Part shown: in pieces, positions 544-60,809 of the stretch
How positions within the stretch are numbered: position 1 is the stretch's first letter
How the letters are laid out: each line of letters starts with the position of its first letter
Source of the DNA: an uncultured bacterium
GTDB taxonomy: Bacteria > Patescibacteriota > Patescibacteriia > CAIQCM01
NCBI GenBank assembly: GCA_963708045.1
Contig: OY970181.1
Location: 579,740 to 643,739, forward strand
Length of the DNA: 64,000 nucleotides
Direction of reading: 5' to 3'
Notes under the pieces: model-generated
What the model saw: the letters and a program-made list of their open reading frames with translations, nothing else
Databases searched by the model: none
What the model was told of the DNA's origin: nothing
Translations under genes and position numbers: made by a program

Positions 544-571
544 AAAAACGGCCTTATTAGGCCGTTTTTTA
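544..571. terminator. Bidirectional rho-independent terminator hairpin
   Basis: aaaaacggcc-ttatta-ggccgtttttt. It is a GC stem flanked by A-run and T-run, downstream of the minus-strand gene ending at 595. Confidence 0.6.
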
Positions 572-594
572 TCGTTTGTTAACTAAAGAATAAT

Positions 595-2436: not shown

Positions 2437-2477
2437 GTACCATCAAATATGGTGGTTCATGGTTCATGGTTTATGGT

Positions 2478-4664
2478 TTATGGAATCATACCCAAGAATA
2501 ATGGTCGCTCGGGAGTTTGGAGTAGTTCCGGTAAAACCTCGGCTGGAACACGAGGTAAGACCTCGGAGATCTGAGGACTCGCCTCAGGAATAGGAAGGGG
2601 CGGCGCGCCGAGCGTGGCGGCGGCAAAAACGTCACTGCTTTGAGTAATAATTTCTATTTTTCCGTCGCCTTGAACATCGCCTGCGGAAACCTTAACGCCC
2701 TTTTTTGAACTTTGCGCAAAGGCGAAAAATTGAACAACTACTTTGTTTTTATTTGTCGGGTCAAAAACGCGCACGTGCGGCCCGCCACCCGCGCCGGCGC
2801 CGGTAATAATCTGTCCGTGTTTAAGGCCGATAATGTCGCCAACGGCCACATAAACGCCGCCTTTAAAGGTTTGTGCGTAAGCGAAGAACTGATATTTAAT
2901 AATACCGCTTCCGCTCCAAGCACGCACGTGCGGCCCGCCACCCGCGCCGGCGCCAGTCACAATTTCAGCGGCCGAATCATTGTCAACATTGCCGACGGCC
3001 AAATGCACGCCGCCTTTAAAATTTTTCGCGTAAGCTAGGAACGATTTAATTTCGTGTCCAGACACATCAAAGATTTTAACTTCTGGTGTTCCACCCGCGC
3101 CAGCGCCTAAAATGATCTCGTTTTTGCCGTCGTTATTCACGTCGCCCACGCCAAATTCCATTCCGTTTTTCCATTTCACGCCAAAAGGTTGCCACGAAGC
3201 AATAGCATTTTTTGCGGAATTATAAATCGTGACGCTGGTTTTGTCGGCGGAAATCGTTTCAATATTTCCATCGGCGTTGATGTCGGTTTCTAAAATTTGG
3301 ACGCCGCCTTTAAAACGATCGTCATAGGCAAAAAAACCGTCGCGTGTTTGTATGGCATTGCTTCCCCAAATACGGACAAATGATCCGTTAAAATAGGCGG
3401 CGCTCGCGATTTTGGCGAGCGGCCGAAGCATAATAAGTCCATCACGCGCCGGAATCGTTACGCTTGAAATAATGGATCCATCGTTGGTTATGCTGTCTTC
3501 GGTGCCGCGGATTTTTTCAAATTCAGAATCAAAAGTAATTGTTTGCGCTTGGTTAGTTGGGTTTACCAAAGCAATGCCTTTTTCAAAATTTCGTTGCCAA
3601 ACGCCGGAAGTAAATTTAATGGCTGTTCCTGTGCCGACGCTCGCGCCGGTAATGGCGTTTTTGGCGAGACCAGTTGGTTTGCCTAAATAAACTTCATATT
3701 CGTCATAGCGCCAGGTTTGTCCGTGATCTTGGTCGCCAAAGTCAAAGCTAAAATAGCCGTCGCCCATAAGCGCGCTTGCAAGCGCGAAGCGCATTTTTTG
3801 ATAATCCTCGCGATTGCCGGTGTTGGCCGTGTTGGCGTTTATAATAAACGCTTCGGGCGCGGCGACGACGGTTAGGTTGGCAACATAGCGGCGCATTATT
3901 TCGTACCAATCACCGTTCGCTTCCCAAGTTGCGGGAAACGATTCAAACATTCGGCCGTTCGTGAGTGGCTGAAACTCGGGCGTTGAAGTTCCGTTGATGA
4001 CGAAAATTTTTTGCGGGTCTAGGCTGCGCGCCGTCTTTAACATTGTAATCATTCCATTTTTCCAAGCCGCATCGGCTGTCTGCGCACCATCATTAATTCC
4101 GTCGCGGTTCAAGTCAACATTGCTGTTATTTACCCAAGAGATGCTATCCGACACCTCGTCGTAAAAAATTCCATCCCATTTTCCGGTGTTTAAAATATTG
4201 TCGTGAACGTAATTGGGCAGGTAAGTATTCCAGCTTGAAGTTGCCGAAAGTGCTTGTGTGCCCGGCCAAACGGAAATTGCGCCGCCGTATGAATCGCGAA
4301 GCCACATTTCGTCGCTAATGCCGCTTTTAAGATTAACGTGCAATGAATCGCCCCAGCCAGTAATGTAACTTTTGGTCGGGACGTAAGCAATTATAATGAT
4401 GTTTGGATTACGGCTTCTTAGTTCGCCAAAAACTTCGGGTTGTGATTCCTGAAGTTCGGCTGGTAAAATTATTAAATCAAACTTAGCGAGCGCCTCGTAG
4501 TCTTCTTGGTACACCAGTTTCATATATGGCACCGCCGTGCGCACAAATTTATCCGTCGGCGTGGCGGCTGATATTTTGGTGATTGGAAATAAATTTAAAA
4601 CAAAAATTATCGCGATAACGCTTTTAAATATTTTAAGGAAATTTTTTATGGGCAGGTTTTTCAT
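2478..4664 (-). CDS. Secreted glycoside-hydrolase-like (TIM-barrel GHL/GH114-type) domain fused to C-terminal FG-GAP/VCBS repeats
   Basis: 728 aa with an N-terminal signal peptide. The central region resembles putative glycosyl hydrolase-like families. The C-terminus has at least 4 repeats of the pattern VGDVNNDGKNEIILGAGAGGTPEVKIFD / AVGNVDNDSAAEIVTGAGAGGGPHVRAW, which is typical FG-GAP. Confidence 0.5.
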   Translation of the reverse strand: MKNLPIKNFLKIFKSVIAIIFVLNLFPITKISAATPTDKFVRTAVPYMKLVYQEDYEALAKFDLIILPAELQESQPEVFGELRSRNPNIIIIAYVPTKSYITGWGDSLHVNLKSGISDEMWLRDSYGGAISVWPGTQALSATSSWNTYLPNYVHDNILNTGKWDGIFYDEVSDSISWVNNSNVDLNRDGINDGAQTADAAWKNGMITMLKTARSLDPQKIFVINGTSTPEFQPLTNGRMFESFPATWEANGDWYEIMRRYVANLTVVAAPEAFIINANTANTGNREDYQKMRFALASALMGDGYFSFDFGDQDHGQTWRYDEYEVYLGKPTGLAKNAITGASVGTGTAIKFTSGVWQRNFEKGIALVNPTNQAQTITFDSEFEKIRGTEDSITNDGSIISSVTIPARDGLIMLRPLAKIASAAYFNGSFVRIWGSNAIQTRDGFFAYDDRFKGGVQILETDINADGNIETISADKTSVTIYNSAKNAIASWQPFGVKWKNGMEFGVGDVNNDGKNEIILGAGAGGTPEVKIFDVSGHEIKSFLAYAKNFKGGVHLAVGNVDNDSAAEIVTGAGAGGGPHVRAWSGSGIIKYQFFAYAQTFKGGVYVAVGDIIGLKHGQIITGAGAGGGPHVRVFDPTNKNKVVVQFFAFAQSSKKGVKVSAGDVQGDGKIEIITQSSDVFAAATLGAPPLPIPEASPQISEVLPRVPAEVLPELLQTPERPLFLGMIP

Positions 4665-4732
4665 ACGTCCAATGTCTAGTGCCTAACAAAGCGGTGTGCC
4701 GCGAAGCGGCGATTCGGATTAGATATTAGAAA

Positions 4733-5038
4733 TTAGATATTAGGTATTTTTTCCTTACTCTCTTCCTTCTTCAACACCGCCGGATTTGGCGAGAATTTTT
4801 TGTTGCTAATCTTCCAACTGCCGACAAATTGGCCAATCCCTTTTGCTTCGGATTTGTTTCTAACGTGCGCCGAAGCCTGCGACCATTTTACGAGCGACTC
4901 AAAAGAGATCTTATACCTATTTTGGACAACAACATAATTAAGCAGACCACTTGAAATAGCCCTACGGACGGTGAGGGCGCTAACGCCAAATAGTTTGGCG
5001 GCTTCGGATACGGATAGTCTAATGATGTTGTCGGACAT
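4733..5038 (-). CDS. Excisionase/MerR-type helix-turn-helix DNA-binding protein
   Basis: LSVSEAAKLFGVSALTVRRAISSGLL is an Xis-family HTH motif. The start is placed at the internal Met (MSDNIIRL), because the upstream 15 codons overlap a REP-like 'tggttcatgg' repeat. The ORF-track start is 5083. Confidence 0.5.
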   Translation of the reverse strand: MSDNIIRLSVSEAAKLFGVSALTVRRAISSGLLNYVVVQNRYKISFESLVKWSQASAHVRNKSEAKGIGQFVGSWKISNKKFSPNPAVLKKEESKEKIPNI

Positions 5039-5099
5039 TGTCGTTAGGGGATAGGGGCTAGATATGAACCATGAACCATCCATATACGCTCCGCGCTAG

Positions 5100-5280
5100 A
5101 TGCTATTTGTGTACGCTAGCGTACACAAATAGGCGGTTTTTGACTGCCTTGACCTTATCAGTTTTTGACCTAAATGTCAACCGTCAAGGGTCAAGGGTAT
5201 AGGGGATAGGGTTTAGTATCTTTCTGCAAACTCTATACACTAAACTATACCCTAACCCCTAAACCACGCGCTTGCCCAAA
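5100..5280. repeat. REP-like palindromic intergenic repeats: a perfect 30-nt palindrome plus inverted 'gggtataggg' arms
   Basis: ctatttgtgtacgctagcgtacacaaatag is a perfect palindrome. gggtataggggatagggtttag ... ctaaactataccctaacccctaaacc are imperfect inverted arms. The same 'accctataccc' family recurs at 21085-21195, 48380-48465 and 49690-49745. Confidence 0.5.
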
Positions 5281-5394
5281 AACCCTATTTGTTGTACTTT
5301 AGAACCACTTCGTTGGAGTCGAAGTCAGCAGAATGTTTGATGTTAGTTGGCAAAATACAATTTTAAAGCTAAATAAAGCGAGAAAAAATCGCTT

Positions 5395-5500
5395 AATTTA
5401 GTTATTTAGAGATAGAGATTAGATGTTAGATATTAGACGTTATGAAGACGAATAACAAACTTCTACATTCCAATCTCTAATCTCCAATCTCTATAGAAAG
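5395..5500. repeat. MITE/REP-like ~90-nt imperfect palindromic element, copy 1 ('agagattagag' arms, core gaagacgaataacaaacttc)
   Basis: Arms tagagatagagattagatgttagatattagacg / ctacattccaatctctaatctccaatctctat flank a conserved core. It is homologous to copies at 6062-6150 and, inverted, at 7222-7312. Confidence 0.55.
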
Positions 5501-5534
5501 GTGTAACATTATCCTCCAGTAAACGATTAACTAT

Positions 5535-6062
5535 ATGAGCAACCCGCTCACTGAGCGGCTTTGGGTGTATAGAATCAAAATGGGTCGGGACCAGAAATCA
5601 TTTGCCGCCATTTATGATCGTTATCTTACCCAAATCTACCGCTTCGTGTTCTTCAAAGTAGGATCAGAAGAAGATGCCAAGGAAATATCCACGGATGTTT
5701 TTATGCGCGCTTGGGAGCATATTTCTTCTGGCAAAGAAGTGACTCATTTAACGGGTCTCCTATATATGATTGCGCGCAGCGCGGTTGTGGATCACTTGCG
5801 CAAAAAAAAGTTTGAATTGGTTTCAATAGAAGACGCGCCAGAGACCGTTGATCAAAGAATGAATTCGGCGATGTCGTCCGAGCTTGGCGACACGCTCGCG
5901 GCGATCAAACTTTTGAAAGAAGAATATCGCGAAGCGCTCCTAATGCGGCACGTTGATGGACTTGGGGTGGGGGAGATTGCGAGCGCACTTGGAAAGACAA
6001 ATGGCAACACGCGCGTTCTTCTACACCGCGCCACGGAAGCGTTAAAAGAAATAATGAAATAG
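5535..6062 (+). CDS. RNA polymerase sigma-70 family, ECF-type sigma factor
   Basis: 175 aa. Region 2 is YRFVFFKVGSEEDAKEISTDVFMRAWE and region 4 is REALLMRHVDGLGVGEIASALGKTNGNTRVLLHRA. Size and motifs are typical of the ECF subfamily. Confidence 0.85.
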   Translation: MSNPLTERLWVYRIKMGRDQKSFAAIYDRYLTQIYRFVFFKVGSEEDAKEISTDVFMRAWEHISSGKEVTHLTGLLYMIARSAVVDHLRKKKFELVSIEDAPETVDQRMNSAMSSELGDTLAAIKLLKEEYREALLMRHVDGLGVGEIASALGKTNGNTRVLLHRATEALKEIMK

Positions 6063-6150
6063 AATTAGTAATAGAGATTAGAGATTGGAAATTAGATTTT
6101 GGAAGACGGATAACAAACTTCTAACATCCAATTTCTAATCTCAAATCTCT
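6062..6150. repeat. MITE/REP-like palindromic element, copy 2
   Basis: tagagattagagattggaaattagattttggaagacggataacaaacttctaacatccaatttctaatctcaaatctctaatc. The reverse complement of copy 3 is near-identical across the ~45-nt core. Confidence 0.55.
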
Positions 6151-6162
6151 AATCAAGTAAAA

Positions 6163-7221
6163 ATGACCAACAAGGAAATAAAAAATAAACTCTCCGCTCT
6201 TGCCGCCCTAAAGGCGACAGGGGAGCCGAACGCGCTCTGGGTAACCGAGACGCGCGCTTTGCTTATGGAAAAAATTTCCTCGTCCAAGGCGGCTCCAGTA
6301 ACGGCGGCACAAGAAATCATCAAACTGCCGCGCGTTGGATTTTTTCCAAAACTAATGTTTGCAATGCGTCCGCTTATGGTTGTTGTTTTGGTTTTTGGTT
6401 TTGGTGCTTTTGGATATTTTGGAAGCATTGGCGCGATCGCTTCGTCGCTTCCAGGAAACAAGCTTTATGGATTTAAAACAATGGCCGAACGTGCTGAGCT
6501 GACTTTCGCGGCGTCCGATGATGCGCGCGCACTTTTGCATGCCGACTTTGCCTCACGCCGCGCTTCCGAAGTAGCGGCTTTGGCCGAAGCCGGTTCTGGT
6601 GCATCAGAAAAAAATGTTGCTGCGGCAATGGCCAATCTTACTCATGAAATGAAAAATGTAAGTGAAACAATGAAGGCGGTTACAACGGATTACGGCGCTG
6701 GTGCGGTCGCAATTGCTAAGGCTGTTGATCGTAAGGCCGCCGAAGTACGGACGATTATTGGCAAGACAAAGTCAATGCTTTCTTTGGCTTCAAAAGATCA
6801 GGTTCAGTCGGTGGAAGATATGGCTGACGATCTTTCGCTTCAAGCCGTGGCCGTGCTTGCCGCCGCACCTGCTGACAAAAATGACGACGTTAAAAATCGC
6901 GTTCAGGAAAATATAAACAGCGTTCAGAAAAAATTAGAAATCGCGACGCCAGAAGGTGCCGAAGAACTTAAGGATGCCAAGGCGGCCAAAGCCGCGCTTA
7001 CCGCGGCGCAAAAAGCCGCTGATAGCGCGGACTATATTGGTGCAGTAACCAAGGTTCAGGAAGCGGTTTTGCTAGCGACGCCCGACAAGGCGACAGTGGT
7101 TGACACAACAACCGTAAACGTAAATGCCAACACGCCAAAAGTTGAAACGAATGTTAATGCAAACACCAACACCAACACAAATACTAATCAGCCTGCCAAA
7201 ATTAAAGCCATTGATTTGTAA
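6163..7221 (+). CDS. DUF5667-like membrane protein, putative anti-sigma factor partner of the upstream ECF sigma
   Basis: It sits immediately downstream of the ECF sigma. The N-terminal cytoplasmic segment (MTNKEIKNKLSALAALKA...) is followed by a single TM helix (LMVVVLVFGFGAFGYFGSIGAI) and an Ala-rich helical periplasmic domain. The tail is low-complexity NVNANTNTNTNTN. This architecture matches DUF5667 proteins paired with sigma factors. Confidence 0.55.
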   Translation: MTNKEIKNKLSALAALKATGEPNALWVTETRALLMEKISSSKAAPVTAAQEIIKLPRVGFFPKLMFAMRPLMVVVLVFGFGAFGYFGSIGAIASSLPGNKLYGFKTMAERAELTFAASDDARALLHADFASRRASEVAALAEAGSGASEKNVAAAMANLTHEMKNVSETMKAVTTDYGAGAVAIAKAVDRKAAEVRTIIGKTKSMLSLASKDQVQSVEDMADDLSLQAVAVLAAAPADKNDDVKNRVQENINSVQKKLEIATPEGAEELKDAKAAKAALTAAQKAADSADYIGAVTKVQEAVLLATPDKATVVDTTTVNVNANTPKVETNVNANTNTNTNTNQPAKIKAIDL

Positions 7222-7312
7222 ATTTAAAAAAAGAGATTAGACCTTAGAGATTAGATGTTAGAAGATTGTGTCCGTCTTCTAAAATCTAATTTCCAATCTC
7301 TAAGATCATTCC
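7222..7312. repeat. MITE/REP-like palindromic element, copy 3 (inverted orientation)
   Basis: Its reverse complement is ggaaattagattttagaagacggacacaatcttctaacatc..., which matches the copy 2 core. Confidence 0.55.
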
Positions 7313-7322
7313 TGATTCCGTC

Positions 7323-7500
7323 TTTCATTTTGTTTTTAAAACAAAATGAAAGACGGAATCGGGATAAATCCCGTTTTCTTTAAAAAATAATTCCGCCGTT
7401 CTGGCGCAGGACTCTTTACACGAAATTTTTGCGTAAAGAGTCCTGCGCACTAAAGAGCGGCGGGCTTGATTCGTCAAAGGTTGAATCCCGCTCGCCGGGA
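7323..7500. repeat. Cluster of three near-perfect long hairpins in the 5' region of the giant surface-protein gene
   Basis: Hairpin 1 is ccgtctttcattttgtt-tttaaa-aacaaaatgaaagacgg (17-bp perfect stem). Hairpin 2 is cgggat-aaa-tcccg. Hairpin 3 is gcgcaggactctttac...gtaaagagtcctgcgc (16-bp perfect stem) nested in ccgccg...cggcgg. Confidence 0.45.
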
Positions 7501-7553
7501 AGTCACTCAAGTAACTTAACTATTCTTAAATAAAAAGAAAAAATTTCATCAAT

Positions 7554-10500
7554 ATGACAGATGCATTAAAACTGTCGTACGGTGTAATGAAGCGCTCCTT
7601 CACGGTTGCCGTGGTGATTGCGACCATTCTTTGGTCCGTTGCCGCGACTTTTGCCGTTGCCCCTCGCGCCGCTCATGCGGCGACCTCGGGTGACCTCGTG
7701 AAGGGCTCGCTCTCGGCTGTCTACTATGTAGGCTCCGACAGCAAGCGCTACGTTTTCCCGAACGACAAAGTGTACTTTACTTGGTACACCGATTTCTCCA
7801 CGGTTAAGAAAATTTCCGACACTGACTTGGCTGCCCTTACAATCGGCGGCAACGTTACTTACAAGCCAGGTGTAAAAATGGTCAAAATCCAGTCTGATCC
7901 TAAGGTTTACGCCGTCGGTCACGGTGGCGTTCTCCGCCCGATCGCTTCGGAAGCCGCCGCCTCCGCCCTCTACGGCTCCACCTGGAACAAAAAGATTGAC
8001 GATATCTCCGACGCCTTCTTTGTGAACTACACTGTTGGTTCGCAAATTTCGTCCGCTTCGGACTTTGTTATCGCCACTGAACAAGCCAACTCCACCTCAA
8101 TCAATACCGACAAGGGTCTTTCCGGCGCTGGCGCGCTTAACATCTCGCTCGCCTCGGACAACCCAGCTGGTTCAACACTTACCTGCAATGCTTCTGGTGT
8201 TAACTTCCTAAAAGTTAATCTCTCGGGCACGGGTACAGTTACTGGCCTCACCTTCCACCGCATTGGTGCTGGTGTTGCCGCTGACTTTAGCAATGTCTAC
8301 CTTTACGATGGAGACACTCGCTTGACCGTTGGCCGCTCGGTGACTTCTTCCGACAACTCGGTTACGTTCTCTAACTTGAACGTTGCCGTTTCCGGTTCAA
8401 AAGAACTCACTTTGGTTGCTGACCTTGCCGCCCTCACCGCCTCCACCGCAACCCCCCCCTCCGCTTGTGTTGCTCTTGCTGGCGACTCCAACGCTTTTGC
8501 GATCAATGCCGCGACCGATGTTGTTACCAACACGACCGTCGGCGGTACCTTCCCAATTGCGGGCGGTTACTTCTCAATCGCTGCTTCTAAGAGCGGTACG
8601 CTTGCCGTTACTCCGGGTTCTGCTCCGTCCAACCCAAAGGTTGGTCAGCAGGCTGCTGAACTTGCCAGCTTTAAGGTTCAGGCTGGTTCATCCGAAGACG
8701 TGATTCTTCGCCGCATCATTGTGACCAACGCGGGTTCTGCCCAGTTGGCCAACCTTGCTAACCTAAAGATTACGGATGCCGGTACAATCATCGCGCAAAA
8801 CCCGATTATTTCGGGAACGACCGCGACCTTTGTGCTTGCTGTCCCATACACTTTGGGCAAAGGCATTCAACGCACGCTCTCGCTCGTTGGCGACGTCCTC
8901 GCGGCTAACCGCGCTGGCGTTGACACGATCAAGTTCTACATTGACCAGACCTACGACGTCTACGCCACTGGTTCCACTTACGGAATGGGCGTGAACGTGA
9001 CCAACACCTTCACTACGGGCAACTCGCTCAGTATTGATGGCGGTCAGATCACTTATGCGTTTAATGGTCCGACAACCGGCAATATCTCGGTTGGCGCTAA
9101 CGATGCTAATCTCCTCAAGTTCGCGATTACTTCGCAGAACAATATTGAAGTGAAAAGCACGACCGTTCGTCTCACTTTTAGTGCTGACGTTTCGGCCGAT
9201 ATCGCTAATGTCACTGATATTAAAATCAAGAACGCCGACACCGGCGTTGTTGTCGCTGGTCCGTTTGACCTTTCGTCCTGGACTGGTTACACCGATGCTA
9301 CTTTCGTAACCGTAGACGCCACGCCGTCACAATGGTATGCCAAGACGTTCACCGATCGCTACGACGTTTCGTCGGGCAAAACGGTTAACTATGTTGTCTC
9401 GGCTGACATTTTGACCACTGGCACGGGTCTCGCCGCCAAATCCGTTACGGCGACCCTCGCCGCTCGCGTTGGCACCAACATCCGCAATATGGATTCCAAC
9501 CTGGATGTTGCCACAACCGATATCGTCCCGGCCTCTGCCCTCGCTGGCAATCCGCAGACGGTTAGCGCTTCTGGTTTGACCGTTGGTCTTGCGAGCTCGC
9601 CTTCAACAGCGACCGTAACCAAGGGTTCTACCGTTAACGCGGTGGGCATCAACTTTACCGCCGGTTCTGCGTCGGACGTTAAAGTTTCTCAAGTTAAGCT
9701 CTATGCTTACATCAACCTTATTAATGGTGATGAAGTCTTGGGCGTTTCGGATGTTGACAGCACAAGCGCGACTCACTATTCCGCTGACTTGGTTCAATCC
9801 GTTTCCATCTGGGACGGTACGACCCAGCTTGGCACCACGCAGTCGCCTTCGGCTGGTCTTCTGACCTTCTCTAACCTTGCGTGGACTATTCCCGCCGGCA
9901 CCACCAAGACGCTTGTTGCCAAGGTAACTTCCTCCAACAACGCGCCTTATGGAGCTCAAACCAACCACATTGTTATTGACTTAGTTGGTACGGGCGATGA
10001 CAACACCACGTCAGACATCGCCGCGACTGACAAGGACACCAACACTGTCTCGGCGACTTCTACAGCTTGGTCTTCTACACAAAGCCACTTGAACACCACG
10101 GCCGCCAATGACACTGCTTGGGGTACCAACGGCGCTCCAGCTGTTTATGACGACATTGTTGCTTCGGGTTCGCTTACTATGAGCCTTGATGGCGACACAC
10201 CAGTTACTTCCATTGTTACGGCCAACACTAACGACAACTCGGTCACCCGCGTTAAGTTTAACTCGGTGAACGAAGCGTTCTTGGTTACCCGTTTGACTGT
10301 GGAAAACGTTGGTTCTATCGCTTCCAGCCGCTCCATTACTTCCGTCCGCGTCTATGACAAAGATGGAACCTTGGTCTGCTCGGGCGCGCTTGATTCCGCG
10401 AACCGCTTGCGTTGTGCAAACGACGCCGGTCTCTTCACGGTAAATGGTAACCACACGGTTACCATCAAGACCAACCTTGCTCAGGAAGGCTCTGGTACAA

Positions 10501-11621
10501 CCGGCGCCAATTCCGGCGATAAGCCGAAAATGGCCGTCGTTGTTCCACAAGCCGATGATGCCGCTGATGTTTACACCGACGACATTAAGGTCGTTGGCGT
10601 TTCCTCGGGCACGGCTTTGGTTGACACAGACGTTGGCGGCGGTTCTTTGACCGTCTCCGACAACTTGCTTGCAACCAAGATCACCGTCGCCACCACCGAT
10701 ATTTCTGGTGGATCATTCGTAGTCGGTGATACTGTTACTCAGGGTAGCGCTACTGGCCGGATCGTATCGGTCACGGTAGTTTCCACCAACACTGTAATCA
10801 CTGTTGTTGACACTGCCGGCGCCGCGTTCACCGCGAGCGGTACTGATCTTGTTAGCACCTCTTCACCTGTTGCGACGGCCGCCACTGTTGGCGCCGTTGA
10901 CACCACTGTTGTGCTTGTCGGCGCTCAGGGCAATAGCTCGGTTATTCGTAAGACTCAACCGACCGTTGCGACTGTTGCTACATCAACAAATCTTATCAAC
11001 GGCGAACAGACTGTTTACCAATTCTCGGTAACATCCTCTTCCAACGCCGATGTTGCGATTCACCAGTTCAACCTCAATATGTCCCGCTACAGCGTAGCTG
11101 TTAATTCGTACCGTGTCTTTGAAAACGGTGCGCCAATTGACGCTTCGCTTTATCGCGTCTGCTCCGGTACTTCTACCGCCGCCCCTGTCTTTGTGGCCGG
11201 CGTTATGACTACTTGTTCAACAGAAGTGAGCGGAAGCAATATTGATTTGACGACCGTTGCTGGTATCGCCACGGGTGATACAACTAAGATTATCTCGGTT
11301 GTCTTTGGCACTGAACGTACGATTGCCGCCGGTACCACCAAGACCTATGCCATCAAGGCTACGGTTTCTGGAGCTATCTCGGGCGATTCATTGAGCCACG
11401 TTATGTCGGATGATGCGACGGAAACCAGCATTTCGGGCGCCAATACCGGCAATCTTGTGAACGTTGTTGCTGCCGCTGCTCCGAACTTCGTTTGGTCCGA
11501 CACCTCGGCTGATTCCCACAACACTGGGACGGCTGCCACTTTTGCCTCCTCTTCAACCGACTGGACCAATGGTTACTTGGTTAAAACCTTGCCAACCTCG
11601 TCTCAAACGCTTTCTCTCTAA
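7554..11621 (+). CDS. Giant secreted surface protein (1355 aa) with an N-terminal conserved ~110-aa module and long T/S/V/A-rich beta-repeat region
   Basis: Signal peptide MKRSFTVAVVIATILWSVAATFAVAPRAAHA. Residues ~46-160 (GSLSAVYYVGSDSKRYVFPNDKVYFTWYTDF...MVKIQSDPKVYAV...DDISDAFFVNYTVGSQI) are homologous to the C-termini of the 12470, 19934 and 21242 proteins. The remainder is low-complexity Thr/Ser/Val-rich. An internal poly-C(8) tract lies at 8452-8459. Confidence 0.8.
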   Translation: MTDALKLSYGVMKRSFTVAVVIATILWSVAATFAVAPRAAHAATSGDLVKGSLSAVYYVGSDSKRYVFPNDKVYFTWYTDFSTVKKISDTDLAALTIGGNVTYKPGVKMVKIQSDPKVYAVGHGGVLRPIASEAAASALYGSTWNKKIDDISDAFFVNYTVGSQISSASDFVIATEQANSTSINTDKGLSGAGALNISLASDNPAGSTLTCNASGVNFLKVNLSGTGTVTGLTFHRIGAGVAADFSNVYLYDGDTRLTVGRSVTSSDNSVTFSNLNVAVSGSKELTLVADLAALTASTATPPSACVALAGDSNAFAINAATDVVTNTTVGGTFPIAGGYFSIAASKSGTLAVTPGSAPSNPKVGQQAAELASFKVQAGSSEDVILRRIIVTNAGSAQLANLANLKITDAGTIIAQNPIISGTTATFVLAVPYTLGKGIQRTLSLVGDVLAANRAGVDTIKFYIDQTYDVYATGSTYGMGVNVTNTFTTGNSLSIDGGQITYAFNGPTTGNISVGANDANLLKFAITSQNNIEVKSTTVRLTFSADVSADIANVTDIKIKNADTGVVVAGPFDLSSWTGYTDATFVTVDATPSQWYAKTFTDRYDVSSGKTVNYVVSADILTTGTGLAAKSVTATLAARVGTNIRNMDSNLDVATTDIVPASALAGNPQTVSASGLTVGLASSPSTATVTKGSTVNAVGINFTAGSASDVKVSQVKLYAYINLINGDEVLGVSDVDSTSATHYSADLVQSVSIWDGTTQLGTTQSPSAGLLTFSNLAWTIPAGTTKTLVAKVTSSNNAPYGAQTNHIVIDLVGTGDDNTTSDIAATDKDTNTVSATSTAWSSTQSHLNTTAANDTAWGTNGAPAVYDDIVASGSLTMSLDGDTPVTSIVTANTNDNSVTRVKFNSVNEAFLVTRLTVENVGSIASSRSITSVRVYDKDGTLVCSGALDSANRLRCANDAGLFTVNGNHTVTIKTNLAQEGSGTTGANSGDKPKMAVVVPQADDAADVYTDDIKVVGVSSGTALVDTDVGGGSLTVSDNLLATKITVATTDISGGSFVVGDTVTQGSATGRIVSVTVVSTNTVITVVDTAGAAFTASGTDLVSTSSPVATAATVGAVDTTVVLVGAQGNSSVIRKTQPTVATVATSTNLINGEQTVYQFSVTSSSNADVAIHQFNLNMSRYSVAVNSYRVFENGAPIDASLYRVCSGTSTAAPVFVAGVMTTCSTEVSGSNIDLTTVAGIATGDTTKIISVVFGTERTIAAGTTKTYAIKATVSGAISGDSLSHVMSDDATETSISGANTGNLVNVVAAAAPNFVWSDTSADSHNTGTAATFASSSTDWTNGYLVKTLPTSSQTLSL

Positions 11622-11718
11622 TCATTTGATTAGCTAAGTTAAAAGCGTAATTAACTTTTGACTTAAGAAAGCGAAGTTTGACGCGATGACCTAAAAAGCA
11701 TCGTTACCAAACGGCAAA

Positions 11719-11748
11719 CCCCTCCGATGATACATCGGAGGGGTTTTG
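11719..11748 (+). terminator. Rho-independent terminator
   Basis: cccctccgatg-atac-atcggagggg followed by tttt. Confidence 0.7.
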
Positions 11749-11753
11749 CGTTA

Positions 11754-11797
11754 TTTACACCCTCCCCCGAGTGCGGGGGAGGGGTTGGGGGAGAGGG
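11754..11797. repeat. GC-rich hairpin repeat (ccctcccccgagtgcgggggaggg family), left direct repeat flanking the DUF559 cassette
   Basis: ttacaccctcccccgagtgcgggggaggggttgggggagaggg. It is almost identical to 12262-12306. Related copies occur at 14953-14982 and, inverted and degenerate, at 12212-12250. Confidence 0.7.
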
Positions 11798-11808
11798 CAA
11801 CTCGTCTA

Positions 11809-12186
11809 ATGGATGTTATAATAATTTCTATGGCACCGATAATAAATACCAATAAATTATTGTCTCGTCGTCGTGATTTGCGCAAAAATCAAACAGAAGC
11901 TGAAAGATTATTTTGGGAAAAAGTAAGATGCGAAAGGTTTTTTGGTCTAAAGTTTAAACGTCAATACAGCGTCGGGTCGTATATTTTAGATTTTTATTGC
12001 CGTGAAAAAAATTTGGCGATTGAAATTGATGGTTCCCAACATATTAAAAATGCTGACTATGATAAAGAGCGAACTTTGTATTTAGAAAATTTTGGGCTTA
12101 CCGTTTTACGTTTTTGGAATAATGAAGTTATGAATAATATGGATGGAGTTTTGGAGGCGATACGGATTAAACTAGAAATTGAATAA
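11809..12186 (+). CDS. DUF559 / Vsr-like (very-short-patch-repair-type) endonuclease domain protein
   Basis: The RRDLRKNQTEAERLFWEKVR...YILDFYCREKNLAIEIDGSQH...LENFGLTVLRFWNNEV motif set is diagnostic of DUF559. The gene is AT-rich relative to its neighbours. The ORF-track start (11746) would include the REP hairpin, so ATG 11809 is chosen, with an alternative at 11830. Confidence 0.8.
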   Translation: MDVIIISMAPIINTNKLLSRRRDLRKNQTEAERLFWEKVRCERFFGLKFKRQYSVGSYILDFYCREKNLAIEIDGSQHIKNADYDKERTLYLENFGLTVLRFWNNEVMNNMDGVLEAIRIKLEIE

Positions 12187-12261
12187 AGTAAACATACTCC
12201 GCCACGCAACCCTCACCCGGCCTTCGGCCACCCTCTCCCACACTTGGGCGAGGGTTTTACG

Positions 12262-12306
12262 TTTACACCCTCCCCCGAGTGCGGGGGAGGGGCTGGGGGA
12301 GAGGGT
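12262..12306. repeat. GC-rich hairpin repeat, right direct repeat flanking the DUF559 cassette
   Basis: tttacaccctcccccgagtgcgggggaggggctgggggagaggg. It is a near-identical direct copy of 11754-11797. Confidence 0.7.
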
Positions 12307-12469
12307 GTCGTTGGTGGTGTATACCCAAAATAATTGTGGATAACTAGAAAAATATTTAATTCTTAAAAAGGAGTATAATAATAATCGGACAAGTTGAAGT
12401 CCGTAAAAATTTATATTTTATCCGCGGGATTAACCGCGATCAATTTTAAATCTTAAATAAAAAAGATTT

Positions 12470-14893
12470 ATGAATGTTCTTCTAAATAATACGGCAAAGG
12501 TAACCTCGCGGGTTGCTTTTTCTGTAATGGCCATTGCGTTGGCTGTTTTATTTCTCTCCGGCATTAAGCCGGCATTAGCCCTATCTGGCGAAGGCGCGGC
12601 GACCATTGCCGACACTACCGGAACTCCGGGTGTTGAACCGGCAGCCGCGGGCGTTACTGCCGAACGTGCGGTATCCGACGTATTCACAATCGTCTTAACG
12701 GTCGGTGCAAGTGGAATTGCCATAGATGCCGCTAATCCGATTTTTACCATCCCGACCGGTTTTACCGCTCCACAGGCGGCGCCGGAAGCTGCTCTTTTAG
12801 ACGTTGATGTTGATGGTGAGTGGTTTGTTGTCGGTGCTGGCGACTCTTGTTCGGTCAATCTGGCGGGGACCACAAACGCTACTGGACAGATGCTTTCGCT
12901 TGATGTTGACGGGGCGTGTGTTACGACCAATACCATCACCGTTACTTACAAAGGGACATCGTCCACTGTAATGACTGCTGCGCCGGTCGTAATAATTACC
13001 GATGATACATCTGGCCCACCTGATCCAGTGGCAATCACTGCACCGCCAACAATCACGGTAAGCGACACGGTTGCTCCAACTGCAACCGATGCCCCAACCG
13101 CCGCCGCTGGTGCGGTTATTAACGATGCCGAAGAAGCTGCCGGTGTTGCCGTTGTTGTCCCACTTGGTACAAGTGGTGCGATTGCGGGCGATACGCTGGC
13201 TTTGTATCTTGGTGGCTCGGCTTTCCCAACACCTTTAACCCACGTTCTTACGGGTGGTGAAATTACGGCAACTGAATATACATTTACCGTTGCATCTGGT
13301 CAACTTGGCGCTGACGGCGCCGGAAAGAGTATCACCGCGTTGGTAACTGATGCCGCCGGTAATCCGGGTACAGCGAGCGCCGCCCTTGTCCTTTCTTTGG
13401 ACACGGTTGCGCCGGTTATTTCCGCGGTTACTCCTTTAACTGGAACATCTAACAACGCCGCACGAACGGTTGGTTATACTTTTGGCGAAGCGGCAGTTGC
13501 CGATGCTGGCACAAAAATATCCTTTATCCGCACTGGTGGCACGGCTGACACGCAAGGAACACATATCTATCTCTTAACTGGCGCTGAATTAACCGCGGCG
13601 GCACATACGATCGCGATTTCGGTTTTAAACGCCGATGCCGTTTCTTTTGCCTTAACTAACGCTTTGGTTGATGGTGCAATTTATACAACTACGATTGACG
13701 CCAAAGATGCCGCCGGTAACGCTTCCACAACAATAACAACATTGCTTGTTACCTATGACACTACGCCGCCAGCAACACCGGTTTCGAGTATTGCTGCGGG
13801 TACTTATCCAAGGTCTCAAAACGTTGCTCTGACCTCAACCGGTTCCAGCTCTATTCGTTACACGGTAAACGGCGATGCGATTGCTGATTGTTCTGCCGGC
13901 ACTCTTTTCGCCGATTACGTCGTTGTTTCTTCATCGCAAACGGTTAAAGCCCGCGGTTGCGATAGCGCCGGAAATATTTCCGTCGCAACAATGTCCACTG
14001 CCTATGTCATTACTAATGGTACAAGCGGCGGTAGTGGTGGATCAACCTATGTTCCGCCTCCAGTAGTTAACGTAATCTCGCCAAACGGCGGCGCGAGTTA
14101 CGCGCCAGGTTCCGTAGTCAGTGTTTCTTGGACTTCTGGCGATGGTGCTTTCGCTAAATATAATGTTTCTTACTCAGACAACAACGGCGCCACCTGGACG
14201 GTGATCGCGAGCAATGTAATCTCCACTAACGCGAGCTGGATAATGCCAAATACCGCCACAACTACGGCCAAGGTTAAAGTTGATGGTTACAATTCAACCG
14301 GTTCGCTTCTTGCTTCTGATTCTTCCAATAGCGTCTTTACAATTACCGGCACTGGCGCTCCGGCCGAAACTCCGGTTGTGCCGGAAACTCCAGCAACTCC
14401 CGCGCCAGTCGTTGACCCGACAGTTAGCGGCTCGTATAACGCCGCCGATGCCAAAAACAACAACCCGACAATCAAGGACGATAAGGGTATTGTCGCCGTT
14501 CCTGCCGGGACAACGGTTTATTGCACCGCCGGAACGCTCATTAAAGGCTCGCTCTCATCGGTTTACTACTGCGGCGCCGATGGCAAGCGTTATGTCTTCG
14601 TGAACGACAAGGCATACTTTACCTGGTACAGCGACTTTACCACGGTTAAAACCATTTCCGACGCCGATATGGCGATGATCCCGCTTGGTGGCAACATCAC
14701 TTATCGCCCAGGCACGAGAATGGTCAAAATTCAATCGGACCCCAAAGTTTATGCCATCTCACGTGGTGGAACTTTGCGCTGGGTTAGCTCCGAAGCAATT
14801 GCCGTGCAACTCTTTGGCGCCGACTGGGCCAAGATGATTGATGATGTTTCTGACGCTTTCTTTGTGAACTACAAAATTGGCGCTCAGATCTAA
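12470..14893 (+). CDS. Secreted surface protein (807 aa) with bacterial Ig-like domains and a C-terminal conserved ~110-aa module
   Basis: Signal peptide plus TM-like segment VAFSVMAIALAVLFLSG. Big-like motifs include TALVTDAAGNPGTASAALVLSLDTVAPVISAVTP. The C-terminus GSLSSVYYCGADGKRYVFVNDKAYFTWYSDFTTVKTISD...MVKIQSDPKVYAI...DDVSDAFFVNYKIGAQI is about 60% identical to the N-terminal module of the 7554 protein. Confidence 0.8.
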   Translation: MNVLLNNTAKVTSRVAFSVMAIALAVLFLSGIKPALALSGEGAATIADTTGTPGVEPAAAGVTAERAVSDVFTIVLTVGASGIAIDAANPIFTIPTGFTAPQAAPEAALLDVDVDGEWFVVGAGDSCSVNLAGTTNATGQMLSLDVDGACVTTNTITVTYKGTSSTVMTAAPVVIITDDTSGPPDPVAITAPPTITVSDTVAPTATDAPTAAAGAVINDAEEAAGVAVVVPLGTSGAIAGDTLALYLGGSAFPTPLTHVLTGGEITATEYTFTVASGQLGADGAGKSITALVTDAAGNPGTASAALVLSLDTVAPVISAVTPLTGTSNNAARTVGYTFGEAAVADAGTKISFIRTGGTADTQGTHIYLLTGAELTAAAHTIAISVLNADAVSFALTNALVDGAIYTTTIDAKDAAGNASTTITTLLVTYDTTPPATPVSSIAAGTYPRSQNVALTSTGSSSIRYTVNGDAIADCSAGTLFADYVVVSSSQTVKARGCDSAGNISVATMSTAYVITNGTSGGSGGSTYVPPPVVNVISPNGGASYAPGSVVSVSWTSGDGAFAKYNVSYSDNNGATWTVIASNVISTNASWIMPNTATTTAKVKVDGYNSTGSLLASDSSNSVFTITGTGAPAETPVVPETPATPAPVVDPTVSGSYNAADAKNNNPTIKDDKGIVAVPAGTTVYCTAGTLIKGSLSSVYYCGADGKRYVFVNDKAYFTWYSDFTTVKTISDADMAMIPLGGNITYRPGTRMVKIQSDPKVYAISRGGTLRWVSSEAIAVQLFGADWAKMIDDVSDAFFVNYKIGAQI

Positions 14894-14950: not shown

Positions 14951-14981
14951 GTTTTTACCCTCGCCCGAGTGCGGGAGAGGG

Positions 14982-15063
14982 GAGTTCGTTTCGCCGTAAA
15001 TAACTTTAACGTAATAATACAGAACTCTCCCCACCCTCCCTTTTACCAAAGGGAGGACTAAGA
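14982..15063. repeat. 83-nt structured intergenic repeat, copy 1
   Basis: gagttcgtttcgccgtaaataactttaacgtaataatacagaactctccccaccctcccttttaccaaagggaggactaaga. It contains the ggagttc/gaactcc stem and the ctccctttt-acc-aaagggag hairpin. It is identical to 15197-15279. Confidence 0.7.
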
Positions 15064-15196
15064 CTTTTTGCGCTTTGTCACTTTCTTTGTAAAAAAGATT
15101 TAATTTGAGAATTTTGTATTTGCCCCTTCTTTGCATAATAGCAGGGTTTTATCTGTAACCAGTCTTAGTCCACTCTTTGCAAAAGAGGGGGTAGGG

Positions 15197-15279
15197 GGAG
15201 TTCGTTTCGCCGTAAATAACTTTAACGTAATAATACAGAACTCTCCCCACCCTCCCTTTTACCAAAGGGAGGACTAAGA
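15197..15279. repeat. 83-nt structured intergenic repeat, copy 2
   Basis: Direct repeat of 14982-15063, separated by ~130 nt of unrelated sequence. Confidence 0.7.
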
Positions 15280-15414
15280 TTGTTGTTGAATATTTGTTAA
15301 TAACAATTGTGTTCTAAAAGTGGTATAATAAAAAACCGGACAAAAAGTCCGTGAAATTAAATTTAAAACAGGGGATAAATCCCTGAATGATTTTAAATCT
15401 TAAGAAAAAGATTT

Positions 15415-18400
15415 ATGAACGCAGTTTCAAAATTAAAATTTTTTAGCGCTAACCACAAGGGGTTGGTTTTTGCTTTTTGTTTTGTTGTGGCCGTGCTTGC
15501 CTTTGTTGCCCTGCCGACGCATAAGGCAATGGCGGCGAACGGCGACATCGTTGTCAATGTTAAAGAAGAGCTGGGAAGCAATCTTGCTGGCGCGACAGTT
15601 GAAATTAATTGTAGCGGCGGCAGTTTTGTGGCCAACGTCGCCCCGACTGACGCTTCAGGTAATGTGACTTTTTTGGTGGCTGACCTTGGTGATTCTGGCG
15701 GCGCGACTCTTTATCACACGGCCGATTGCGACACTAATGCCGAGAGTATCACTTATCGTGTGTCCAAAGATGGATACGTTACTCAAACTACCGGTGGTGC
15801 TGACACATATTTAACGGGAGCCGAAACCGACAAAAATATCACCGGTGTTCAGTTCGCCTACAAACTCACAGCTGTCACAACCGAAGGACCGGGGACAAAT
15901 ATCACAGCGACACTTTCTTCGCTGGCGGTTGGCGCTTCTGGTGCAACCGACGCCTGTACTTTAAATGGCGGCGCTTGGTATTGTCCGGTAACACTCGCCC
16001 ATAGCGTGGGGCCGCTCATTGGCGTGCCAACGCAAGATGGTTATGTACAAGCCAATTACAATTTAGTTACTGGCACAACGCGTAGCGCTAACGCCGACGC
16101 GCAAGTTTCGGACACAATCAGCACGGTTCGTTTTTCCTATAAAATAACATCGGCGACGAGCGAAATCGGCACTAACATCACGGCAATTTTGACAACACTG
16201 AGAGTTGGCGACGATACGGCCACGAACGCTTGCACTTTCTCGGTTGACGCTTGGTATTGTCCAGTCATTCTCGCCAATAGCAACGGTACGCTTAAGGCCG
16301 ACCCAGTTAAAGAAGGTTATGTTCAAGCTGACCACAATTTGGTTCTGGGCACAACGCGCGTCGCGAGCTCTGACGCTCAAATAACTGATTCTTTCACTGG
16401 TGTTCAATATGCATACAAAATAACCTCTGCAACTTCTGAAGCTTTAGCAGTCAATCTTATTTCTACATTAAGCGCGCTTGCCGTTGGTGACGCGACCGCG
16501 ACCAACGCTTGTGAAACCTCGGGTGGCGCTTGGTACTGTCCGGTTGTTCTCGCAAATAGCGACGGCACGCTTCTTGGAGTTCCTACTCAAGACGGCTATG
16601 TGCAAACAAATTACAATTTGGTAATCGGTACAACTCGTGTTGCTAATAATGCATTGCAGATATCGGACACGATCGTTAATGTTCAATACGCTTACAAAAT
16701 TACTTCCGTTACAACCGAAGGCCCAGGCACCGAGCTCCGAGCCACCTTGTCTTCGCTCACGGTTGGCGATGATACCGCCAAAACCGCCTGTGCATTAAAC
16801 GGCACGACTTGGTATTGCCCGGTTATCCTTGCGAACAGCAATGGCACACTTGTCGGCGTGCCAACGCAAGACGGGTACGTATCGGGTGATGATAATTTGG
16901 TAATTGGTACAACGCGCGTTCTTAATACGGCGGCGCAAGTTTCGGACACAATTAGCACCGTTCGGTTTGCTTATAAAATAACCGCGGTTACGGCTGAGGG
17001 TCCGGGAACAAATATTACTGCGACACTGGTTTCGCTTGCAGTTGGCGACGATACAGCTACGACACTTTGTACTTTCAATGTTGCGACTTGGTATTGTCCG
17101 GTTATTCTTGCAAATAGCGATGGTACATTAATTAGTATCCCGATCAAAGACGGTTATGTGCAGGCTAATTATAATTTGGTTCTAGGCACGACGCGTCTTA
17201 CGGCCGCTGCGGCGCAAGTTTCAGATACAGTAACTGGTGTTAGATTTTCTTATAAAATCACTTCGGCGACGAGCGAAATCGGCACCAATATTACCGCAAT
17301 TCTTACGACGCTCGCGGTTGGCGACGATACGACAACAAACGCCTGTGCATTCTCGGTTGATGCTTGGTATTGTCCAGTCGTACTCGCGAACAGCAATGGC
17401 ACGCTAAAAGCCGATCCGGTTAAAGAAGGCTATGTTCAAGCCGACCATAATTTAGTTCTAGGCACAACGCGTCTTGCTAATCTAGACGCTCAAATTGTTG
17501 ATTCGTTTACTGGTGTTCAGTTTGCTTACAAAATCACTTCCGTAACTGCCGAAGGTCCTGGCACCAACCTTACCGCCACCCTCGCTGGTTTAGTTGTTGG
17601 TGATGTTACGGGAACCGATACCTGTATTTTAAACGGCGGCGCTTGGTACTGCCCAGTTGTTCTCGCAAATAGCGACGGCACACTTCTCGGCGTGCCAACG
17701 CAAGATGGTTATGTGGCGGCAAATAATAATTTAGTGATTGGTACGACTCGTGGCACAAATGCTGCCGCCCAAGTTTCTGACACAATTACTGGTGTTGATT
17801 TCGCTTACAAAATCACCGCCGTTACCACCGAAGGGCCTGGTACCAACCTTACAGCGACACTTTCTTCGCTCGTGGTTGGTGACGATACTGGTACAACGGC
17901 CTGTGCTCTTAACGGTGGTGCTTGGTATTGTCCGGTTTTGCTTGCAAATAGCGACGGCACGCTTATCGGCGTGCCAACGCAAGATGGTTACGTCGCGGCT
18001 AATAACAATTTAGTGATTGGCACGACGCGTATTACTAACGCTGCGGCGCAAGTTTCTGACACGATTAGCACGGTTAAATTCTCATACAAACTTACAGCCA
18101 TTACCACCGAAGGGCCTGGTACCAACCTTACAGCGACACTTTCTTCGCTCGTGGTTGGTGACGTGACGGGAACCAACGCTTGTATTTTAAATGGTGGCGC
18201 TTGGTATTGTCCGGTTTTGCTCGCGAATAGCGACGGTACGCTTATCGGCAATTTGGTTGAAGACGGTTATGTGCAGGCAAACTATAATTTGGTTAATGGC
18301 ACAACGCGCGCCGCGGCCGGCGATCCACAGCGCACTGAAACTATTAACACGGTTCAATTCGCTTATAAAATTACAGGAGCGACGACAGAAATTAGCACCG

Positions 18401-59917: not shown

Positions 59918-59951
59918 CCAGAAAAAAATCAACCCCGCGTAGTGGGGATTT

Positions 59952-60036: not shown

Positions 60037-60040
60037 GTGC

Positions 60041-60795: not shown

Positions 60796-60809
60796 AACAT
60801 GCAAAATAC

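Follow-up and report, generated by a model that had tools for sequence, protein, structure and literature searches.

A DUF559 nuclease gene bracketed by BoxC/PIT/TM repeats in an uncultured patescibacterium, one case of a gene-repeat association that recurs across phyla

The intrastrand triplex motifs (TM, or TMECO in Escherichia coli), formerly BoxC and PIT elements (Bergler 1992; Hoyne & Maher 2000), are repeats of a three-block design, i.e., a hairpin with a pyrimidine and a purine arm accompanied by a third block, again of purines and mirroring the purine arm by G.G, A.A or T.A triads (Holder et al., 2015, PMC4666352). The TMECO consensus is CCCTCNCCC-N3-6-GGGNGAGGG-N3-GGGNGAGGG. There are 23 copies in E. 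coli K-12 and the motif is found in >260 genomes, across phyla, always in intergenic position and often as inverted pairs of two subtypes, the copies being near-identical within one genome; the sites are associated with local genomic instability and are hot spots of local variation (PMC4666352). Triplex formation by the E. coli units has been shown in vitro, but no stable triplex in vivo (PMC4666352). The same authors stated that they had never met with a gene or a mobility function associated with these repeats, and the words endonuclease, Vsr and DUF559 are absent from the main text of their paper (PMC4666352). Here we analyze a stretch of 64,000 nt (the window) from contig OY970181.1 of an uncultured bacterium of the Patescibacteriota, in which positions 11754-12305 hold a small DUF559 nuclease gene bracketed by BoxC/PIT/TM repeats in the order Y(+)-gene-X(-), followed by an extra Y(+). 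We call Y a unit that reads arm, loop, arm and third block on the + strand and X a unit on the - strand. The window is one case of a gene-repeat association that recurs across phyla, with a fixed geometry and with ends that are matched within each locus.

A comparable arrangement is that of the repetitive extragenic palindromes (REP), or REPINs, and their RAYT genes (Nunvar 2010; Bertels & Rainey 2011, PMC3116915; Bertels 2017, PMC5581495). In both systems a single-copy and vertically inherited nuclease gene is flanked by inverted GC-rich palindromic repeats, the repeat is dispersed through the genome, often in inverted pairs, and its sequence variant is genome-specific. The window locus has this layout, i.e., inverted flanks of a dispersed repeat around a vertical gene at a single locus, but the window itself contains few dispersed copies. 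The enzymes are different, since RAYT is an HUH/Y1 (IS200/IS605-like) transposase and the window protein a predicted hydrolytic nuclease (DUF559) of the Vsr fold. In addition, REPs carry a GTAG/CGTC tag, whereas the repeats of the window have no tag and possess the third block. As for the TMECO units, they share the three-block design with the Y and X units of the window, but were described without an associated gene (Holder et al., 2015, PMC4666352), while the latter bracket one.

Identity of the repeats and their arrangement around DUF559 genes

A preliminary description of the window, made from its letters, had pointed to a DUF559/Vsr-like endonuclease gene lying between two giant genes and flanked by near-identical 44-nt direct repeats, with an inverted degenerate copy nearby, and all these features are confirmed (Table 1). 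The two copies of TTTACACCCTCCCCCGAGTGCGGGGGAGGGG(T/C)TGGGGGAGAGGG are identical at 43 of 44 positions and their starts are 508 nt apart; no match to the 44-nt direct repeat was obtained in dinucleotide-preserving shuffles of the sequence. The REP-like hairpin character ascribed to the flanks also holds, as they fold with z = -5.6 to -7.2 and form the stem CCCTCCCCC/GGGGGAGGG as predicted. In the whole window, Rfam at gathering thresholds gave tRNAs only and no match at the repeats. To judge from their sequence, however, the repeats are not a REP private to this genome but BoxC/PIT/TM intrastrand triplex motifs, a known and widespread family. Units Y1 and Y2 read CCCTCCCCC-N6-GGGGGAGGG-N5-GGGAGAGGG and follow the triad rule with one mismatched triad, and X fits the same three-block design on the other strand. 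The second loop has 3 nt in the E. coli TMECO, 5 nt in the Y units of the window and 12 nt, with a mini-hairpin, in X. A loop-2 mini-hairpin of the X type recurs downstream of the DUF559 gene in other loci (L146, L170, L442 and L432; L numbers denote the loci compared). Several variants of the unit exist, e.g., the AGAGGGGG and GGGGGAAGG types. For the units of the window only the Watson-Crick hairpin is predicted, and the triplex is putative.

The order in the window is Y1, DUF559 gene, X and Y2. The stem of X has one T:C mismatch, and its hairpin (12231-12254) is 92% complementary to the one at 14957-14981. X and Y2 fold jointly as one long imperfect palindrome (-82 kcal/mol, z -5.9). The direct repeat of the window exists because a second Y follows X, making an X-Y palindromic pair.

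The association was analyzed in 80 DUF559 loci retrieved by a metagenome scan that was blind to the repeats (43-72% identity; GC content 0.29-0.69; phylogenetically non-independent). Units were identified with our own three-block detector. For this detector the pyrimidine arm is 8 nt long and the purine arm may contain <=1 mismatch, the loop between them measuring 2-9 nt; the third block, reached after a second loop of 0-16 nt, must follow the purine-motif triad rule, again with <=1 mismatch. Units with shorter blocks or longer loops are missed, as happened with PCC 7002 pAQ6 and with the Nomurabacteria locus L432, both of which have units, so the fractions given here are lower bounds. A TM unit was found within 250 nt upstream of the DUF559 gene in 54 of 77 loci, downstream in 53 of 71 and on both sides in 44 of 68. 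The density of units was 3.9 per kb near DUF559 and 0.16 per kb in the remainder of those contigs, and a unit was present in 39 of the 54 intergenic gaps next to DUF559 (72%) compared to 8 of 78 other gaps (10%; Fisher p = 1.4e-13), so that the link between gene and repeat assumed in the preliminary description goes well beyond chance.

The orientation of the units is also constant in most loci. The nearest upstream unit was on the + strand in 50 loci and on the - strand in 5 (none in 22), while the nearest downstream unit was on the - strand in 46 loci and on the + strand in 7 (none in 18); the combination (+,-) was found in 36 of 68 loci. This bias means that both third blocks face the gene. 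The direct repeats, which the preliminary description had taken as the defining architecture, are therefore secondary, inverted units being the standard ('+' in 50/55 upstream, '-' in 46/53 downstream). The units end a median of 3 nt before position 1 of the protein profile and start a median of 8 nt after position 116, and the DUF559 open reading frame (ORF) runs into the downstream unit in 40 of 53 loci. Besides, the two ends are matched: when Y was compared with the reverse complement of X, the identity was 0.82 for units of one locus and 0.69 for units of different loci (p = 5e-16). The true partner came first in 16 of 42 loci, and in L170, L370 and L442 the loops were identical at both ends. 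The similarity of the units tracks that of the proteins (Spearman 0.42), a correlation for which relatedness of the hosts is another possible cause. Units dispersed on a contig are similar to the gene-flanking units of their own contig (0.79 vs 0.68, p = 3e-7).

All related loci that were read by eye have units on both sides of the gene. The layout is X X X Y - gene - X Y in L001, X X Y - gene - X Y in L169 and X Y - gene - X Y in L146. In L170, which lies in an unrelated genomic context, it is Y Y Y Y - gene - X X X, with tandem repeats of 67 nt and 56 nt, and in L171 it is X - gene - Y X, while the cyanobacterial locus L131 also has units on both sides. The Y-gene-X-Y layout of the window is found in L001, L169/L293 and the Nomurabacteria locus L432. 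TM-like units were present beside DUF559 in five out of five named isolates from four phyla (Neisseria gonorrhoeae, Picosynechococcus, Deinococcus, Azospirillum and Synechocystis). In N. gonorrhoeae (L417, NZ_CP119142.1, 1996-2691) three pairs of TM units with a period of 281 nt are located downstream of an NGO0050-type DUF559 gene; this record is listed in PLSDB as a 2.17-Mb 'plasmid' but is evidently the chromosome.

Table 1. Positions of the features described, in the window unless another locus is named.
Feature	Position	Strand	Remarks
Conserved block (window)	5535-11621		sigma-70, DUF5667 protein, 1250-1355-aa protein without Pfam match
Conserved block (L001)	1544-7567		same block
Conserved block (L169)	570-6753		same block
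Upstream giant gene	7554-11621		1355 aa, no Pfam match
Intrinsic-terminator hairpin of upstream giant gene (predicted)	11716-11746	+	14-bp stem, T-rich tail TGCGTTATTT
Direct-repeat copy 1	11754-11797	+	TTTACA + triplex-motif unit Y1 (11760-11797)
Y1 pyrimidine arm	11760-11768	+	CCCTCCCCC, then loop GAGTGC
Y1 purine arm	11775-11783	+	GGGGGAGGG, then loop 2 GTTGG
Y1 third purine block	11789-11797	+	GGGAGAGGG
Extended -10-like box	11814-11822	+	TGTTATAAT, 7 nt before ATG, read from sequence
DUF559 nuclease gene (PF04480)	11830-12186	+	Vsr-fold PD-(D/E)XK-type, 118 aa
Inverted triplex-motif unit X	12210-12254	-	blocks given as read on + strand
X third block	12210-12218		CCCTCACCC
X mini-hairpin	12219-12229		GGCCTTCGGCC, within loop 2
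X pyrimidine arm	12231-12239		CCCTCTCCC, then loop ACACTT
X purine arm	12246-12254		GGGCGAGGG, then TTTT
Direct-repeat copy 2	12262-12305	+	TTTACA + unit Y2 (12268-12305)
First shared upstream element	12366-12384 and 15316-15334		GTATAAT-containing box, ~85 nt upstream of genes 12470 and 15415
Second shared upstream element	12443-12474 and 15390-15419		ATTTTAAATCTTAA..AAAAAGATTTATGAA, running into start codon
Downstream giant gene	12470-14893		807 aa, no Pfam match
Hairpin-only relative of unit	14958-14981	+	CCCTCGCCCGAGTGCGGGAGAGGG, no third block; just past terminator of gene 12470-14893
Copies of 101-nt repeat	14968-15068 and 15184-15284		93% identical, next intergenic region
Two triplex-motif units, different variant	15024-15057 and 15240-15273	-	CCCCACCCTCCC-TTTTACCAAA-GGGAGG, each inside a copy of the 101-nt repeat
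Inverted relative	15160-15197		between the two copies
tRNA genes	59845-60884		four: Thr-GGT, Tyr-GTA, Thr-TGT, Trp-CCA
Low-GC DUF559 gene (L001)	8001-8357		
Low-GC DUF559 gene (L169)	7123-7479		
Low-GC DUF559 gene (L170)	2441-2797		
X-Y pairs, second TM subfamily (L001)	778-880, 2086-2166, 3291-3429, 9013-9107		within 16 kb; one inside called sulfatase gene (8567-10600)

Beyond Y1, X and Y2 the detector found in the window only the two units at 15024-15273, i.e., 5 units in 64 kb. The repeat block begins 8 nt past the terminator of the 1355-aa gene. The giant genes that start at 12470 and 15415 have near-identical elements upstream (Table 1), which suggests that their promoter and leader regions were duplicated.

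The gene, its protein and its relatives

With 131.9 bits (E 1e-38; cut-off 20.6) over positions 3-108 of the 109 of the profile, the match of the gene to Pfam PF04480 leaves little doubt about the family. The start kept among homologues is the ATG at 11830, giving 118 aa, while the ORF of public gene callers, beginning at TTG 11746, translates through the repeat. A TGnTAYAAT box 6-7 nt before the start codon is present also in L001, L169, L146 and L442, and its closeness to the ATG suggests a leaderless transcript; a scan for the promoter consensus, which requires a -35 box, made no call at the box of the window. The AlphaFold2 model (pLDDT 89) gave as best Foldseek match the structure 3HRL (E 2e-8, TM-score 0.72/0.90) and next the catalytic domain of the homing endonuclease I-Bth0305I (E 1e-4, TM-score 0.63/0.74, 26% identity), followed by the nuclease domains of PvuRts1I/AbaSI and by Vsr (E 0.03). 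PHROGs returned 'homing endonuclease' (E 4e-9). Residues D54, E65, D67 and H71, among others, are invariant in 31 sequences. The protein is thus modeled with a Vsr-like alpha/beta nuclease fold that contains conserved acidic and His residues, predicted to be catalytic, in line with the Vsr-like assignment of the preliminary description.

Among known relatives, E. coli YcjD and the uncharacterized N. gonorrhoeae NGO0050 (PDB 3HRL), both small stand-alone DUF559 proteins, belong to the same family, have the same size and have TM-type units beside their genes (profile match to 3HRL E 2e-37; NCBIfam PRK09767 E 3e-31, below its cut-off), but their identity to the window protein is only 41-51%. The EDxHD enzyme I-Bth0305I (PDB 3R3P), the closest solved fold after 3HRL, is larger and resides in a phage group I intron, whereas the gene of the window is free-standing, lacks an intron or intein and encodes no additional DNA-binding domain. 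Vsr itself (PDB 1VSR/1CW0) is of the same fold superfamily, but the structural match is weak and the window protein matches only DUF559 and MTES_1575 and not PF03852. Some data sources label its homologues 'very-short-patch-repair endonuclease'; a Vsr in the strict sense was rejected, as there is neither a Vsr profile match nor a Dcm-type cytosine-5 methyltransferase partner beside the gene. A defence system was also discarded, since PADLOC gave only a marginal match to DpdF (E 1e-3). The DUF559 family is very large, with 45,038 clusters at 50% identity. A second paralogue, P0006 (69% identity), is present in the 1.19-Mb genome of the window, and one close relative of this paralogue is flanked by a matched Y/X pair of its own, in which the loop is different. 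In four other proteins (P0129, P0131, P0132 and P0136) two or three DUF559 domains occur in tandem, the N-terminal copies being degenerate; we considered that these could be read-through products of cassette arrays, but they are true tandem-domain proteins.

The compositional contrast noticed in the preliminary description is real. The GC content of the gene is 32.5% (0.26 at third codon positions, GC3), against 42.5-53.4% in the 36 other genes of the window, and DUF559 genes were lower in GC than their own contig in 37 of 40 loci. However, the low GC is kept in all the orthologues (31-37%, GC3 0.26-0.34) in hosts of 50-55%. The synonymous divergence (dS) between the window gene and that of L001 is ~0.75, so that simple amelioration after one old transfer fails to explain it. 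The ratios of nonsynonymous to synonymous substitution (dN/dS) were 0.078 between L001 and L169 and 0.23 between the window and L001, i.e., the gene is under purifying selection.

L001 and L169, whose proteins are 72% identical to that of the window, have the gene in the same position behind the orthologous giant gene. All three genomes share a block formed by sigma-70, the DUF5667 protein and the 1250-1355-aa protein, and orthologous terminators precede the repeats in all of them, while the region downstream of DUF559 varies among the relatives, containing a sulfatase, HicAB or giant genes. The Y copies of L001 are again 508 nt apart and are identical at 45 of 46 positions, yet they differ from the window copies in the loop and the third block. 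The flanking copies are thus ~98% identical within each genome and different between genomes and, given the dS of the genes, this indicates concerted evolution of the flanks and no fresh duplication. L001 contains as well the X-Y pairs of a second TM subfamily listed in Table 1. Four protein clusters, each represented on 4-24 contigs, had one genomic context apiece (4/4), and P0030 and P0047 (63% identical) share synteny, which was kept across 63-72% identity in two separate lineages. We looked for a target-site duplication outside the units and none stood out, the longest shared word being 4.4 nt against 3.95 nt in the control. A classical insertion sequence or transposon was therefore rejected: ends resembling terminal inverted repeats are present, but without target duplication and without copies in multiple contexts. 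Integron cassettes with attC sites are likewise small genes between imperfect palindromes that recur as direct repeats, but the units described here are inverted around the gene and occur also dispersed singly in the genome, both of which argue against an integron cassette; no integrase or attC hallmark was noticed at the window locus, where no search aimed at either was made.

The comparison with an empty site proposed in the preliminary description had a mixed outcome. The orthologous loci of L001 and L169 contain the gene, but a distant relative (L415, 37% identity) has the orthologous terminator alone, with neither gene nor repeats after it. A search through the C-terminus of the giant gene gave only distant relatives on short contigs, and a clean empty allele with just the TM pair was found for none of the loci examined. 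In this lineage the DUF559 unit is old, vertically inherited at a single locus and under purifying selection.

ycjD and the number of triplex motifs in E. coli

The small DUF559 gene of E. coli K-12, ycjD (1351407-1351760), has the TMECO numbered 9 in Table 1 of Holder et al. 168 nt downstream, and its stop codon overlaps a degenerate hairpin, CCCTCTCCC...CGAGGGGG; the window differs from this by its tight Y/X bracket. Between the stop codon and TMECO #9 there is a degenerate duplicate, ~40 nt long, of the 3' end of ycjD (L292, NC_000913.3 1351204-1351420), which together with the hairpin could be what is left of an earlier cassette or of a recombination event. We found ycjD in 3378 of 5426 complete E. 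coli genomes. As has been described (PMC12817139), the sapF-fabI interval contains ycjD in phylogroups A, B1 and C and in sequence types ST69 and ST182, and elsewhere the eefRABCD operon; at least two independent events have been reported for this polymorphism. ST69 and ST182 are lineages of phylogroups D and E. An eef-positive O157:H7 strain had no ycjD and no TM unit recognized by the detector in the 18 kb around fabI, indicating that TM #9 travels with ycjD.

The numbers of TMECOs in Table S7 of Holder et al. (PMC4666352), the strains of which were assigned to phylogroups in the present analysis, are 13-30 in A/B1/C, 1-2 in B2, 10-11 in O157/O55 (E) and 6-13 in D/F. Like in these data, among chromosomes retrieved with a chimeric BLAST query that joined ycjD to one TM unit (60 rows, taken from all along the ranking) those with ycjD had a median of 16 TM places (10-27, n=35) and those without it a median of 3 (1-23, n=21; Mann-Whitney U test, p = 7e-8). 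A contrast of this kind is what the model of a partner enzyme predicts, and it is confounded by phylogeny.

Possible action of the nuclease and alternative explanations

The reading that we prefer, and to which we give an even chance, is that of a resident nuclease associated with the TM repeats and probably acting on them, an analogue of RAYT/REP with a homing-like component. By this analogy the enzyme would recognize the hairpin or triplex-prone units, those flanking its gene as well as those dispersed elsewhere, and would nick or cleave them. Repair templated by another TM copy would then homogenize and spread the repeats, and if the template was the gene-bearing copy the gene would be carried along. 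The instability of the genome that has been described at TM sites would likewise be explained by such an action. What was observed with regard to homing is the similarity of fold to I-Bth0305I and, in the sapF-fabI interval of E. coli, the presence of either ycjD plus TM unit or the eef operon.

Several observations weigh against this reading. Binding or cleavage of TM DNA by DUF559 proteins is hypothetical, and strand transfer is beyond a hydrolytic nuclease alone. More distant DUF559 genes, on viral contigs, had a TM flank upstream in only 3 of 12 cases and downstream in 2 of 11, so that the gene-repeat link depends on the clade, holding largely within the one studied here. Seen from the side of the repeats, the hairpin-plus-third-block pattern had DUF559 nearby at 1 of 123 repeat-seeded loci, and the pattern with the loop of the window, found at 44 sites in many phyla, had it beside 2 of them. 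The preliminary description had named, as refuting its proposal, a repeat ubiquitous in intergenic regions and unassociated with DUF559 genes; in part this is so, the repeat being ubiquitous and mostly distant from DUF559, but from the gene side the association is strong, and a low rate on the repeat side would be given by a single-copy partner and also by mere co-location. The bare hairpin CCCTCCCCC-N6-GGGGGAGGG was rejected as a probe for being too generic: viral contigs with it number at least 120, and in 0 of 120 was there a DUF559 gene less than 600 nt away. TM pairs without gene had no orientation bias (46 '+-' vs 40 '-+') and hence cannot be read simply as internally deleted cassettes; ORFs lie between TM units in repeat-rich contigs as well, spurious ones being many in GC-rich contigs. 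To these points must be added the small number of units in the window and the fact that the commonest dispersed pairs in L001 belong to a subfamily other than that of the gene-flanking units. In E. coli the correlation amounts to one or two phylogenetically independent events, and some genomes lacking ycjD still hold 11-23 TM sites. Finally, the detector is self-made and the 80 loci are not independent of each other.

Gene and repeats could be found together without interacting at all. TM units would create or mark fragile, junk-tolerant sites after terminators, in which a small selfish or dispensable gene lands and survives, the substrate of its nuclease being elsewhere. In favor of this are the local variation concentrated at TM sites (Holder et al., 2015, PMC4666352) and the location of the units right past terminators in the window, L001 and L169, with a variable region downstream; besides, most TM units have no DUF559 nearby and the DUF559 genes of viral contigs mostly have no units. 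We nevertheless consider it unlikely, because it leaves unexplained the fixed inverted orientation with the third blocks facing the gene, the abutment at 3-8 nt, the matched ends within a locus and the contrast, on the same contigs, between 72% of the gaps next to DUF559 and 10% of the others. A pattern like this was noticed in no other gene family, though no systematic test was made. A still less probable option is that the flanks are cis elements of the gene, the upstream third block serving as ribosome-binding or promoter element and the downstream hairpin as terminator or mRNA stabilizer, with unrelated uses for the dispersed copies. The third block (GGGAGAGGG / GGGTGAGGG) does resemble a Shine-Dalgarno sequence and ends a median of 3 nt before the domain start, and a T run follows the X hairpin in the window and L442. 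However, it is the -10-like box and not the unit that stands before the start codon in the window clade, the ORF often enters the downstream unit (40/53), and mirror-image ends matched by locus, like tandem arrays of units, are not needed for regulation. In studies quoted by Holder et al. (2015, PMC4666352), PIT elements showed neither promoter nor terminator activity in E. coli.

The enzyme might alternatively protect the host by removing hairpin, triplex or mismatch lesions from TM repeats, selection keeping the remedy beside the problem. Its fold is like that of Vsr, a mismatch-nicking enzyme, in some X-type stems the variable N position holds one mismatch, T:C or G:A, and the gene is inherited vertically under purifying selection. 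But an enzyme acting in trans needs no tight physical linkage, the E. coli lineages that possess the gene are richer, not poorer, in TM sites, and the lack of a Pfam Vsr match and of an adjacent cytosine methyltransferase at the window locus fits poorly with this role, which we regard as improbable. As to the recent insertion of a mobile endonuclease cassette that would have duplicated a REP-like target of 44 nt, as the preliminary description proposed, it now appears very improbable. The near identity of the two copies (43/44), a GC content 15 points below that of the host (37 of 40 loci are GC-poor relative to the contig), the absence of gene and repeats in L415 and the presence in E. coli of ycjD and a TM unit where other strains have the eef operon, for which two or more independent events have been reported (PMC12817139), would all agree with it. 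They are outweighed by the same position of the gene in L001 and L169, with the 508-nt spacing shared by L001, by the concerted evolution of the copies, the purifying selection (dN/dS 0.08-0.23), the single context of each protein (4/4) and the lack of a short target duplication outside the units; moreover, the canonical layout is inverted and the direct repeat secondary.

Extending the idea of a resident repeat-associated nuclease beyond this clade, we propose tentatively, as a possibility on the doubtful side, that small stand-alone DUF559 nucleases are the missing partner enzymes of the BoxC/PIT/TM repeats. They would make up a second REP-RAYT-like system, present across phyla and built on a hydrolytic nuclease of the Vsr fold, in which cleavage would spread and homogenize the repeats and cause the instability. 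Both components were already known; the partnership is new to the searchable literature, as no mention of it was found in the searchable DUF559, triplex-motif or REPIN literature, subscription journals being outside this coverage. The TM repeats have been known since the early 1990s and in hundreds of genomes, but their origin, their near-identity within a genome and their spread are unexplained, and the link with such a large gene family gives both a testable hypothesis, for which YcjD and the 23 TMECO sites of E. coli are an immediate experimental system. If true, partnerships of repeat and nuclease like that of REPIN and RAYT would have arisen more than once, with unrelated enzymes.

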